From a virus (taxonomy: Duplodnaviria > Caudoviricetes): a DNA stretch of 55,806 nt. Made by a program: the position numbers and the translations under genes. The notes beneath the pieces are model-generated. The model did no database searches and had not been told where the DNA came from. It worked only from the letters and a program-made list of their open reading frames with translations. Shown here in pieces: positions 6,108-44,244 of this stretch. The stretch covers positions 1 to 55,806 of IMG/VR virus record IMGVR_UViG_3300037780_000011; one strand, 5' to 3'. Within the stretch, counting starts at the first letter, position 1. Every line of letters starts with the position of its first letter.

Positions 6108-6452
6108 ATGCGTTACCTGTCTCTTGCGGTGATATTGGCCTCTATGCCCGCGTATGGGCAGGATATGCCGGTTGAGTGGCCTGCTGACGAGTGGAGCTTG
6201 GATCAGATCAACGAAGACCACTATCAAGTAACTTTCTATAATTCTGAACCACCATCCAGTGCAGTTTTCCCTAGATCACTCAATATGGAAGACATGGAAG
6301 TTGATTTGAATCTTGAATGGACTTCCGGCCCAGAAATTCTGTATGCCTACCCGCCAGTAGGTTGGATCGCCGACCCACCTTTCATTGTTGTTGACGACGG
6401 CTCTATTGGTTTTATTGACATCATACGTTACGAAGAATGGCAAGGAATGTAA
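6108..6452 (+). CDS. Acidic secreted protein of unknown function
   Basis: Signal-peptide-like N-terminus MRYLSLAVILASMPAYG; RBS AAAGGA. Confidence 0.65.
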   Translation: MRYLSLAVILASMPAYGQDMPVEWPADEWSLDQINEDHYQVTFYNSEPPSSAVFPRSLNMEDMEVDLNLEWTSGPEILYAYPPVGWIADPPFIVVDDGSIGFIDIIRYEEWQGM

Positions 6453-6454
6453 GC

Positions 6455-7573
6455 ATGACACCGGAACAGCAGACAGCACTAGACCTTCAAGAGCAAGGAT
6501 ACACCCGTGCGCAGATCGCGTCTCAAATGGGGATTTCCGAACATGCCGTGAAGCGCCGGTTGGCGGGTGCGCGGAAGTGGCTGGACGGCGACAAGGAGAT
6601 CACAGGAACAGCATCATCTCTTGGCGTGACAGACCCAAGGTCGCTGCGCCTCTACTGGGATAAGAACCACGAATTGCCAGACGGTCGCGTTGTAACTGCC
6701 CTTATCAACAATACGGATACGGAGGAGCAGAAGCAAACACTTGTTGATGTCCTACGCGAAACCCTGACGAACATCCCGAAATACGAACCTGTCCACGTTC
6801 CTCGGACCGAGGACAACCGCCTGACAGTATACCCACTAGTTGACGCCCATTTTGGGATGCGAGCATGGGGCAAAGAAACAGGAGGACCTGATTACGACCT
6901 AGCGCACGCAGAAAGCGACATCAAGATGGCGTTTTCCCGCTTGTGGTCCGATATGCAGGTGACTGACGACGCCCTATTGATCCTTGGCGGTGACACGCTC
7001 CACACGGACGACAACGAAGGACACACGCAGTCACGGTCGCATGTCGTTGATACGGACGGTCGTCTCTACAAGGTCACAGAGGTAGCTATTCGTTCAATCT
7101 GCTGGATCATTGATGGCCTGTTGCAGCGTCACTCAAAGGTCACTGTGCGCGTCCTGCGTGGAAACCATGACCCACACGCCCACATCGCATTGCACTTTGC
7201 TTTGTCAGCGCGTTACGGCGACATTGTTGTTCCGGCAGAGCGTGACATCTACTGGTATCGGCATGGCGTAAGCTTGATCGCTGCCCACCACGGAGACAAG
7301 GGTAACGCGAAAGACCTGTGCATGGTTGTATCTGATACATGCCCTGAGTGGTCAGCAACGCGAGACAGGCACGTTTTCACGGGGCACATCCACCATGACA
7401 GTATCAAGGACTTTCCGGGTGTGAAGTGGTGGTCACTAAAGGCTTTCTGCCCGCCTGATGAATACGGCTCCCGGTTTGGAGGCAAGCGAGCCTTGCAAGG
7501 CATTATCTTTGATGCAAAGCGAGGGTTCAAGACACAGGAAGTAGAGGGGGTTGTTCGGGATGCAACCCCCTGA
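6455..7573 (+). CDS. HTH-fused calcineurin-like metallophosphoesterase
   Basis: N-terminal HTH (RAQIASQMGISEHAVKRRL); DAHFG, GGDTLH, GNHD, HHGD and GHIHH motifs. Confidence 0.85.
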   Translation: MTPEQQTALDLQEQGYTRAQIASQMGISEHAVKRRLAGARKWLDGDKEITGTASSLGVTDPRSLRLYWDKNHELPDGRVVTALINNTDTEEQKQTLVDVLRETLTNIPKYEPVHVPRTEDNRLTVYPLVDAHFGMRAWGKETGGPDYDLAHAESDIKMAFSRLWSDMQVTDDALLILGGDTLHTDDNEGHTQSRSHVVDTDGRLYKVTEVAIRSICWIIDGLLQRHSKVTVRVLRGNHDPHAHIALHFALSARYGDIVVPAERDIYWYRHGVSLIAAHHGDKGNAKDLCMVVSDTCPEWSATRDRHVFTGHIHHDSIKDFPGVKWWSLKAFCPPDEYGSRFGGKRALQGIIFDAKRGFKTQEVEGVVRDATP

Positions 7574-15862: not shown

Positions 15863-15940
15863 AAAAAACCCACCCCGGTCCTGACTACTCAGGATATGCG
15901 GGCTGCGGTCGGGGTCGAACCCTTCCGGGGTGGGGTAGGT
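15863..15940 (-). other. Branched stem-loop ending in a U-tract (terminator or small structured RNA)
   Basis: CCCACCCCGG/CCGGGGTGGG outer stem, inner hairpins TCCTGA/TCAGGA and GGGT-TCG-ACCC, T-run on the minus strand. Confidence 0.55.
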
Positions 15941-15950
15941 TAAGCCTCAA

Positions 15951-34923: not shown

Positions 34924-35641
34924 ACGCCTGTGGCGCACGAATAACGCGGCTGACATAGCCCGTGGGAACGTGCCGGGGTCTACGCCGTTCACGTCCTTTG
35001 GGGAGAAGGTTGTCACGGGATCAGGCGCGAGCATCGTCTGGCAAACTGGTATGCCGACGACTCTTACGGTGCCTGACAACATCCAGCTTACGCTTGTCTC
35101 CACATCGGCAAGCGACACTGGCGACATCGTTATACGCTACCTTGACGGAAACCTGATCGAGCGTCACGAGACAGTGACGTTGAACGGCACAACATCAGTC
35201 ACGACAACGGCAACCGACATTCGCGCTCTTAACAACGCCTATTCCAAGTTCGGCCCGGTTAATGGAACCATCACCATGACGAGTGGTGGAACCACCTACG
35301 GGCGTATGTCCGCTGGTGACATCCAATTCCACACGTCCATGATCCGGGTTCCTGCGAACAAACGCCTGATGCTTACGGGCCTGTATGCAGGTTCGGCGTC
35401 TGGTTCGTCAGACAGCAAGGTTATCGTCAGCCTTGTCACGTCCTTCATCAACGGCGACAGTTTCGCGGAAGACGGGTATCTGCATCCGCTCGCGGCTGTT
35501 GCCATTCAGGACGGTTCTGCAACCTTCCCGAACTTTGGCCCTTTCCCAATTCCTGCTGGCGAATGGGTTGGGTTCCGCGCCAAGTGGGACAAGGCGGCTG
35601 ACATCACAGCAGGTTTCTTCGGGTATTTGGAAAACGCTTGA
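34904..35641 (+). CDS. Beta-rich virion-associated protein
   Basis: GGAGG RBS before the ATG at 34904; Thr/Gly-rich (ETVTLNGTTSVTT). Confidence 0.65.
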   Translation: MTQPWPERLWRTNNAADIARGNVPGSTPFTSFGEKVVTGSGASIVWQTGMPTTLTVPDNIQLTLVSTSASDTGDIVIRYLDGNLIERHETVTLNGTTSVTTTATDIRALNNAYSKFGPVNGTITMTSGGTTYGRMSAGDIQFHTSMIRVPANKRLMLTGLYAGSASGSSDSKVIVSLVTSFINGDSFAEDGYLHPLAAVAIQDGSATFPNFGPFPIPAGEWVGFRAKWDKAADITAGFFGYLENA

Positions 35642-35666
35642 CGAATCGAGTGGGGTGTGGTTAGTA
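35637..35666 (+). promoter_or_regulatory. Promoter of the CTTGACGAATC class (copy 1), upstream of the structured RNA cluster
   Basis: Identical 11-mer at four intergenic sites; TTGACG -35-like hexamer with an overlapping GANTC. Confidence 0.65.
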
Positions 35667-35672
35667 GGCAAA

Positions 35673-36050
35673 TGAGACGCGGCGGGTATCGCAGCCCGTA
35701 AGGAAGAACCCCCGGCCAAAACTTGCGAGGCGCAAGGGGGCTAGACGGAAAAGGTGCGGGAAAGGCCCGCACGCGCAACGCGAAACGCGCCCGTTGACCT
35801 ATACCGCGTCTCAACATATCCGCCTTTCTGGCGGTGTCAGGGACGGAAGTTGTAAGCCCGTAGAGCGTTTCAAACGCCACCTGACACCACCTGAGACGCG
35901 GCCTGTAAGTCGCCTGGATACCGGGTGCGTTAATGGATTGGGCTTAACCCGGTCGGCCCGCGTCTCAACAAGTTCAGGGGGGCCTTCGGGCTTGTTCACG
36001 CTGCTAAAGCTCCACCGGGACGTGACACACGCCCTACCCGGTGGGGCACC
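35673..36050 (+). ncRNA. Cluster of 4-5 structured non-coding elements, four closed by acceptor-like helices
   Basis: TGAGACGCGG...CCGCGTCTCAACA occurs twice; GGTGTCAGG/CCTGACACC; GCTCCACCGGG/CCCGGTGGGGC; many internal hairpins; no credible ORF. Confidence 0.7.
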
Positions 36051-36056
36051 TTCACA

Positions 36057-36085
36057 TTGACCCCCGCATCGCCACCCGTCATAAT
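36057..36085 (+). promoter_or_regulatory. Sigma70-type promoter for the phoH operon
   Basis: TTGACC-N17-CATAAT. Confidence 0.7.
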
Positions 36086-36115
36086 CGCACCAACGCCATG
36101 CGAACAAGGTGAGGT

Positions 36116-39710: not shown

Positions 39711-39717
39711 AAATGGT

Positions 39718-39791
39718 GACACGGGACTTGGCTGGGCCATAGACGGATTGCAAATCCTGACACTCGGGTTCGATTCCCGCCCGTGTCTCCA
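39718..39791 (+). tRNA. tRNA-Cys(GCA)-like gene with imperfect D and anticodon arms
   Basis: Acceptor GACACGG/CCGTGTC, U73-CCA, loop TTGCAAA, T-loop GGTTCGATTCC. Confidence 0.7.
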
Positions 39792-44214: not shown

Positions 44215-44244
44215 CCCTACCCCGTCATTGCCTGATTCGTCAAG
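44215..44244 (-). promoter_or_regulatory. Promoter of the CTTGACGAATC class (copy 3)
   Basis: GATTCGTCAAG at 44234-44244 on the plus strand. Confidence 0.6.

Follow-up and report, generated by a model that had tools for sequence, protein, structure and literature searches.

What kind of gene, if any, occupies the 474-nt gap (35642-36115) between a 268-aa head-module gene and phoH in a roseophage-like, marine-type phage? The window, that is the whole stretch of DNA analysed here, spans an entire virus record (55,806 bp) that has direct terminal repeats, and carries a tailed-phage gene set including terminase, portal, tail tube, tail terminator, Prim-Pol primase, ThyX and a ChaB-plus-protease head gene. 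Its PhoH shows 62-68% identity to PhoH of Roseobacter, Lentibacter and Celeribacter phages. The 268-aa gene comes after the portal gene, and downstream of the gap the gene order is phoH, a PHROG-12600 gene, mazG and ribonucleotide reductase (nrd). Loci other than the window are given L numbers in the following. In three of them (L013, L015 and L017) the ChaB-protease gene follows the 268-aa gene almost directly, and because relatives join these two genes in this way, the RNA array described below and the phoH-to-nrd block are placed in a variable accessory island within the head module.

The initial annotation had proposed that the gap carries a promoter-driven cluster of four structured RNAs. 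Our reading of the sequence confirmed four helix-closed elements at the coordinates given there (Table 1), with element 2 and the last hairpin built as it had described. Elements 1 and 3 are indeed identical at both ends: they have in common a 10-bp closing helix, the 5' arms of which, TGAGACGCGG, are exact at 35673 and 35892, while the 3' arms plus tail, CCGCGTCTCAACA, are exact at 35804 and 35958.

Table 1. Features of the array and its borders in the window
Feature	Position	Strand	Description
Promoter-like site	35637..35666	+	word CTTGACGAATC; 17 nt between TTGACG and TTAGTA
C-type module 1 (element 1)	35673..35816	+	helix 35673-35682 / 35804-35813; 121-nt multi-hairpin interior; tail ACA; MFE -64.2
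Small hairpin h	35820..35834	+	5-bp stem, loop TTTCT; precedes every B module
B-type module (element 2)	35833..35891	+	9-bp closing helix, anticodon-arm-like hairpin, AGA linker, 4-bp hairpin, tail ACC
C-type module 2 (element 3)	35892..35970	+	closing helix as in element 1; 56-nt interior with two hairpins; tail ACA
Small TTCG-loop hairpin	35980..35993	+	opens the conserved 3' end of the array; in the window, L023, L031, L118, L119 and L193
Terminal 11-bp hairpin (last element)	36009..36050	+	no T run downstream; 5' arm variants all keep pairing on +
Sigma-70-like promoter of phoH	36057..36085	+	TTGACC, 17 nt, CATAAT; 10/12 matches; bounds the array; conserved in L006

For the analysis of folding, each element was compared on the + strand with 200 dinucleotide shuffles of its sequence. 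Element 3 gave the strongest signal (z -4.43; 0/200 shuffles equally good), followed by element 1 (z -2.92; 1/200) and by hairpin h plus element 2 (z -2.70; 2/200), and the terminal part alone was not significant (z -1.12; 34/200). For the gap as a whole, z was -2.45 on the + strand and -1.41 on the - strand. No intrinsic terminator was called on the + strand in 35642-36115: the terminal hairpin runs into ACCTTCACA, not into a T run, and does not have the make-up of an intrinsic terminator. It is probably a 3' end protector or a processing mark, and in L118 it stands alone without modules. Tandem Repeats Finder detected in the array only a 7-nt x 2.7 (19-nt) trace. An alternative pairing was also noted, in which 35820-35841 (hairpin h plus the 5' arm of the B module) is 82% complementary over 22 nt to 35880-35901 (the B 3' arm, the linker and the C 5' arm); this helix is incompatible with both hairpin h and the C closing helix, and could represent an RNase III-type site or a folding switch. 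Elsewhere in the window, at 15874-15950 on the - strand, a long inverted repeat with 10-bp arms followed by a T run encloses the T-arm-like sequence GGGTTCGACCCC and resembles an elaborate terminator.

The array and a tRNA-like gene at 39717-39791 had been said to have the same promoter, and the word CTTGACGAATC is in fact exact at both 35637 and 39681 on the + strand. Two more exact copies are located at 44234 and 49701 on the - strand; all four are intergenic and point at a gene or an RNA, and about 0.03 copies are expected from the length (our own arithmetic). The word heads structured RNAs at two sites, the array and the tRNA-like gene, and protein genes at the two - strand sites, and it also heads arrays or small RNAs in L005, L006, L012/L014, L023 and L192. 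Six of its letters match the -35 consensus at 5/6 positions, and the -10 region is weak, for which reason the array promoter was missed by the sigma-70 consensus scan. The word starts 36 nt ahead of the first helix, and with the promoter spacing transcription would begin at about 35672-35674, where element 1 has its first base; by the same spacing, the tRNA-like gene at 39717 would be transcribed from its first base. The product of the phage ORF at 6437-7573 (378 aa) contains a sigma-70 region 4 domain, and we may speculate that this protein is the reader of CTTGACGAATC. As to RNA libraries, run X23 (oligo-dT metatranscriptome) yielded 4 contigs, one of which, of 158 nt and depth 2.9, lies at 35799-35955. 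It was excluded as evidence of transcription because DNA carry-over may explain the signal. The coverage of the array in run X24 ends at 35684.

The ARAGORN and Rfam scans that the initial annotation had suggested recognised nothing in this region. ARAGORN called 0 tRNA or tmRNA genes in the whole window, and Rfam 15 at gathering scores gave no match for the elements. At E up to 10 the segment 35400-36300 gave one chance snoRNA match only, on the - strand and outside the elements, and no match to the tRNA, tRNA-Sec and tmRNA models; the arrays of L023, L031 and L006 were also without Rfam match. The array does not have the RF00005 cloverleaf, the conserved T-loop and the N73-CCA or CCA-acceptable end of a canonical tRNA, nor the 8/4 or 9/3 arrangement, the 12-bp branch and the long D stem of irregular or allo-tRNAs; when set against a 12-bp acceptor branch, element 2 has a 9-bp helix, 2 nt before the 3' hairpin, and no D arm. 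The features of tmRNA (RF00023, RF01849, RF04321) were likewise not found, with no match in the window region, and a permuted tmRNA was rejected on the lack of a model match. A hammerhead ribozyme was considered for module A, a three-hairpin module of some arrays, and was discarded on the grounds that the core positions differ between copies (by eye) and that Rfam gave no match. An H/ACA-like reading of the ACA tail was dropped as well, since bacteria are not known to have machinery for such a tail. Antisense regulation of the phage's own genes was also abandoned, since the array is complementary to other parts of the phage genome over 13 nt at most, a length at chance level. Among the 47 larger ORFs (Pfam) and the 8 ORFs around the array (PHROGs), none was recognised as coding for an enzyme of RNA processing, RNA ligation or CCA addition. 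In the literature on tRNA-like small stable RNAs of phages, small RNAs of roseophages, phage decoys for anticodon nucleases, mimics of anticodon stem-loops and T4 RNAC/RNAD, no account of such an array was found; the modules may be among the 8,495 candidate structured RNAs from IMG/VR in a 2023 catalogue (PMC10690425).

Relatives of the array were collected in several ways. Search with the 268-aa protein yielded 21 IMG/VR loci, 19 of which were examined beyond the stop of this gene. Window-type modules are present at 3 of the 19 (L005, which is truncated, L006 and L023), only a 46-nt spacer ahead of phoH, that is an empty site, in L008, a short B-like RNA closed by a terminator in L012 and L014, and unrelated small ORFs or genes in 12 of the 19. 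Word scans added L031, L118 and L119, then L192, L193/L195 and the truncated L142. The array set thereby comprises 7 full arrays (L193 and L195 counted once), 2 truncated ones and one locus with terminal hairpins only (L118). The 14-mer of the C 3' end was found in 92 stretches of viral contigs, and among 118 sequences scanned for both helix arms within 30-400 nt one new locus, L031, was obtained; a match in L046 was rejected as a chance match in coding sequence, and L080 as a repeat of the L006 contig. The junction word gave 71 stretches in metagenome contigs, of which only L142 is real, and 42 stretches in bacterial genomes, of which 0 are real and 0/42 carry other array words. The two-ended C pattern, scanned in bacterial genomes with a gap of 80-110 nt, gave 1 chance match in coding sequence. 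The module A word was found in 26 stretches, 5 of them known arrays and the other 21 outside the count; the inner hairpin word was found in 4 stretches, every one already known; and of 7 loci from a terS-based search, the one new, L265, is without an array. Against phage GenBank records no match was obtained with the gap (blastn) or with the upstream 268-aa protein (tblastn), and the PhoH relatives CRP-13, CRP-207 and CRP-2 are not syntenic and carry no array. The family is seen in few metagenomic phage contigs, and no representative bacterial genome had a real copy in the word and pattern scans.

The arrays follow a common grammar: promoter; a C module or module A; hairpin h; a B module; exactly 3 nt; a C module with ACA; the TTCG hairpin; and the 11-bp terminal hairpin. 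The h-B-C unit may be repeated within an array. The order in the window is C - h - B - C - terminal, and L006 carries a C module alone. The string h - B - 3 nt - C - ACA with conserved closing helices was identified in the window, L023 (two units), L031, L119, L193/L195 and L192 (two units), with hairpin h ahead of the B modules in the window, L023 (twice), L031, L119, L193 and L192. These arrays belong to two phage lineages, in which they are located at different loci behind different promoters: in lineage one, after the 268-aa head gene and behind the CTTGACGAATC promoter; in lineage two, they are flanked by a 111-aa gene and terS-terL and stand behind another promoter, whose end is again about 7 nt short of the first module.

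The 10 C modules of the 7 arrays carry interiors of 121, 56, 110, 56, 93, 144, 81, 81, 48 and 81 nt, representing 7 unrelated sequence types within a near-constant helix, of which at least the first 7 pairs are kept in 9/10 modules and all 10 pairs in 8/10. The B modules have a closing helix either of the GGTGT... type or of the GA(A/G)CCAAGC type, and their interiors differ. Element 3 has a 97.6% identical copy in L023, and a counterpart of its second hairpin, differing in the loop, is present in L119, L193 and L192. Mosaicism was seen INDEPENDENTLY: a contig of DNA run X3 joins 35636 to 36090 with 23 other letters between, making an empty site, and loose ends at 35820, 35901 and 36048 continue into sequence matching L119-type neighbours, positions which identify the X3 breakpoints as module borders. 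In L005, hairpin h is joined through a deletion to a C-module 5' arm. As judged from these sequences, the modules behave as cassettes that are gained, lost and swapped among related phages at conserved helices, and the constant helices could persist partly as recombination joints.

The helices are maintained where the sequence changes. In the alignment of B modules (element 2, the L119 copy and the two B' modules), 5 of the 12 consensus pairs are compensatory and 0 are broken. The second C module of L192 has an interior of the L119/L193 type within a closing helix that is shifted in sequence and stays paired through 4 compensatory pairs, and its inner helix is kept via a fifth; comparison of L192 with the L119-type C module gave 6/33 consensus pairs compensatory and 2 broken. 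Because the independent sequences are few (7 arrays, several from one sample), the covariation counts rest on 2-3 lineages, and the pair counts for B and C are a matter of consistency, not statistical proof.

How far are these modules related to tRNA? A genuine tRNA is located exactly at the site of the array in L011 (3734-3816), an 83-nt tRNA-Ile(GAT) with a G3:U70 pair and an encoded ACCA end, which scores highest with the tmRNA model, above the other tRNA-clan models, at 43.5 bits, below the gathering score of 47. It is followed by a second promoter word, ahead of a short RNA with a terminator. The anticodon arm of this tRNA has a 12-nt exact run in common with the first hairpin of the L005 B' module, for which we estimate a chance probability of about 3e-4. 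In the MAFFT alignment, the L011 tRNA is matched with B' and element 2 over the 5' closing arm and the hairpin and on into the TAGAG linker, with 20/32 positions matching element 2 (by eye). The hairpin of element 2 can be drawn with four pairs, two mismatches and a seven-base loop, in which U is second and A-A follows the central triplet; this triplet is TGT in the window and in L193, and TAT in L119. Since the hairpin aligns with the arm of the L011 tRNA, the B family plausibly originated as a cut-down anticodon branch, a three-way junction without D arm or true T arm. The suggestion of a heavily remodelled tRNA is therefore reasonable for element 2, its hairpin being homologous to the L011 anticodon arm, and is not matched by any ARAGORN or Rfam tRNA call.

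For the C family the link to tRNA is weaker than for B. The initial annotation had likened the stem of elements 1 and 3 to the acceptor of the tRNA-Cys-like gene: the C closing helix matches the acceptor of the gene at 39717 at 15/18 positions (own count) with one compensatory pair, which is modest evidence. One C interior of L006 contains a T-arm-like hairpin. The gene at 39717-39791 (+) is itself below ARAGORN and Rfam gathering detection; the model that it fits best is tRNA-Sec (28.4 bits, E 5.5e-4 when 201 nt were searched), and it has an 8-bp acceptor, a 4-bp T stem, a 6-bp D stem, a GCA anticodon, U73 and an encoded CCA. These features match the (8/4) selC*-type tRNA-Cys architecture as described in PMC5389517, and the gene looks like a tRNA-Cys of this type.

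Other tRNA-like traits noticed initially did not hold among relatives. The 3-nt tails, which had been drawn as A-CC or A-AC, vary: B modules are followed by ACC (window, both B'), CCC (L119, L193, L031, L192) or TTC (L023), C modules by ACA (9/10) or ACC (1/10), and the terminal hairpin by ACC in 2 and AAC in 4. The supposedly T-loop-like loop of element 2, TTCAA, is replaced by CTAGA in the B' modules and by CTTGA in L012. GTAAG is present in elements 1-3, as had been pointed out, and is not conserved among relatives (TTATAAG in L119), and a tyrosine-anticodon meaning of this motif was rejected on the finding that its G is A in L119. The sequence thus does not by itself imply that tRNA enzymes would recognise the array, which is without T-loop, D arm and conserved CCA-like end.

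Taken together, the array may best be read as a member of a new family of small-RNA cassettes in phages, which is narrow in distribution and derives in part from tRNA. That the gap is a phage gene cluster for small non-coding RNAs, forming a trans-acting small-RNA cassette array, is a proposition we hold to be about evenly balanced between right and wrong. In this model a phage-specific promoter would yield a single + strand transcript, beginning with the first base of element 1 and folding into autonomous helix-closed modules of two families, the B modules of about 58 nt with a three-way junction and the C modules with a constant 10-bp helix and a hypervariable interior of 48-144 nt, with hairpin h and an invariable linker of 3 nt as joints and two hairpins closing the 3' end. 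The transcript may then be cut at the helix bases into separate stable RNAs; as trans-acting mimics, decoys or sponges, these would engage a host or rival-phage factor recognising tRNA-like RNA in the course of infection, and the fast interior turnover would reflect an arms race. Such a role is favoured because the handles are constant, the contents change fast and one module type keeps an anticodon-like loop. The decoy version in particular is tentative, and we regard it as unlikely. The same tentative standing is given to the widest form of the proposal, a new class of RNA cassette array in which tRNA-derived miniatures with a constant handle for a common processing or loading machine would carry hypervariable cargo, be traded in an integron-like manner and serve as decoys or sponges against tRNA-targeting immunity.

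Among the alternatives, a cis-acting leader of the downstream operon mRNA survives best, and is nonetheless unlikely. The modules would then be stabilisers, RNase III/E sites or processive antitermination elements, and it fits this idea that arrays always lie directly upstream of an operon (phoH-mazG-nrd here, terS-terL in the other lineage), that read-through is likely with no intrinsic terminator before the next gene, and that the 22-nt pairing between 35820-35841 and 35880-35901 has a length typical of RNase III sites. However, phoH has its own promoter downstream of the array, and close relatives express the same operon without the array (L008 and the X3 joint); the downstream genes differ by lineage, and 7 unrelated interiors fit one cis function poorly.

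Quite unlikely, in our estimate, is a decaying phage tRNA cluster, in which the modules would be nonfunctional former tRNA genes with D and T arms lost. The real tRNA at the same site in L011, the irregular tRNA-Sec-like tRNA 3.7 kb downstream, and the homology of the B hairpin to an anticodon arm in modules unseen by tRNA models are all to be expected of such decay, but the compensatory changes keep the helices and the folds are far more stable than shuffles. The strong conserved promoter and the use of one grammar in two lineages at different loci also argue against decay, and compact phage genomes lose pseudogenes and do not shuffle them.

Very improbable is a DNA-level element, such as a MITE/REP-like repeat or a recombination or packaging site, with the inverted repeats acting as duplex or cruciform DNA. 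The 10-bp inverted repeats are perfect, the swaps occur exactly at the repeats, and in one lineage the array is directly upstream of terS; yet the repeat is not dispersed, no real copy appeared in the bacterial genome scans, and an essential packaging site would not be missing from close relatives. A REP/MITE-like identity had been named initially as the finding that would speak against structured RNAs. Many dispersed copies, the mark of such elements, were not found: the 10-mer TGAGACGCGG or its complement has 4 exact sites in the window, all within the array, and the 3 other matches carry a mismatch. A further point against a DNA element is that substitutions give G.U on one strand only. In the terminal hairpin (6 sequences) the 5' arm varies at 3 positions (C/T, C/T and A/G) and the 3' arm is invariant, so that the variants always allow pairing on the + strand (G.U or Watson-Crick) and give a mismatch on the - strand; a C/T variant in the 5' arm of hairpin h (4/8 copies) and a C-to-T change in the second hairpin of the L023 copy of element 3 are each G.U on + and a mismatch on -. 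The MFE of element 3 is -40.9 on + vs -30.5 kcal/mol on -. Because the G.U changes fit the + strand only, and because of the promoter orientation, the evidence favours RNA from the + strand over a pure DNA-level palindrome.

Hardly credible is the idea that unrecognised small protein genes overlap the array: three mechanical ORFs, one on the + strand (88 aa) and two on the - strand (131 and 124 aa), do overlap it, so that the initial view of a region without a credible ORF needs a caveat, but 0/4 of the overlapping ORFs match PHROGs, relatives break them by 1-, 2- and 7-nt indels and whole-module swaps, and G+C-rich sequence yields long chance ORFs. A promoter-headed string of independently folding modules on the + strand, the core of the initial proposal, is upheld by the shuffle tests, the strand-specific variation, the absence of PHROGs matches and the absence of a dispersed repeat.

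The proposed cassette array was compared with known systems. Type III antitoxin (ToxI-like) arrays are promoter-driven structured RNA units that are cut into monomers and play a role in phage-host conflict; they consist of identical tandem repeats beside a toxin gene. In contrast, the array in the window has no near-identical tandem repeats, nor any tandem repeat beyond the 19-nt trace, and its neighbours are a head-module protein and PhoH, with no adjacent toxin. Phage T4 encodes RNAC and RNAD, which are located in the T4 tRNA gene region. As in that case, the RNAs predicted here would be small stable RNAs that are encoded by a phage and accompany tRNA genes. The T4 RNAs are two in number and fixed, whereas here a cassette array with a constant helix and swapped interiors is observed. 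PMC9697503 describes RNAC and RNAD as late RNAs and as small regulatory RNAs of function yet unknown.

Polycistrons of irregular tRNAs or allo-tRNAs, including (8/4) tRNAs in tRNA clusters of alpha-proteobacterial phages, have been described (Mukai et al. 2017, PMC5389517), and some irregular tRNAs are thought there to be non-translational. The resemblance lies in several non-canonical tRNA-related RNAs per transcript, as predicted here, in phages of the same host class. The irregular-tRNA polycistrons, however, keep cloverleaf, D arm, T arm and 12-bp acceptor branch, and tRNA models find them, whereas the array modules have no D arm, conserved T-loop, CCA or model match, and their C interiors are large and unrelated. 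The functional model is borrowed from the evasion of anticodon nucleases, in which a tRNA-like RNA is supplied by the phage in a conflict over tRNA cleavage: phage tRNAs are reported to stand in for tRNAs cleaved by anticodon nucleases of the host, or to evade this cleavage (eLife 2023, PMC10264068; PARIS study, bioRxiv 10.1101/2024.01.02.573894). The B modules keep an anticodon-loop-like heptaloop, whereas the nuclease-evading phage tRNAs are complete and chargeable; unlike them, the array modules could at most bind or distract a factor. Of the known systems, the nearest are the polycistrons of irregular tRNAs and T4 RNAC and RNAD. In our view the array is thus best grouped with the small RNAs that accompany tRNA genes in phages, and it may well prove to be more than that.

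The small RNAs of phages have been mapped only sparsely, and what their tRNA-like RNAs do has been a matter of debate for decades. In the locus described here, a tRNA anticodon arm has apparently been reduced to a 58-nt three-way junction in a promoter-driven string, and a constant handle with fast-changing content is the pattern expected of molecules in host-virus conflict. The array is a testable candidate for RNA-based counter-defence in abundant marine alphaproteobacterial phages, and cassette-array decoys, if true, would be an RNA counterpart of the protein anti-defence islands. Even if the modules are inert, the locus documents tRNA gene decay and recombination in phage accessory islands.

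Two further observations were made at the related loci. In L012 (1785-1905) and L014 (3491-3610) the promoter word stands ahead of an RNA, about 100 nt long, that contains AGAGCG(C/T)C three times, a B-like hairpin and a canonical terminator; this RNA may be a single-module relative of element 2. In the terS lineage, the array is followed by a tiny, very basic ORF of 13-14 codons (M-P-C-K-K-G-R-K...), located at about 1044-1088 in L023, at 2382-2424 in L119, and at about 2312-2352 and again, in duplicate, at 2579-2620 in L193.
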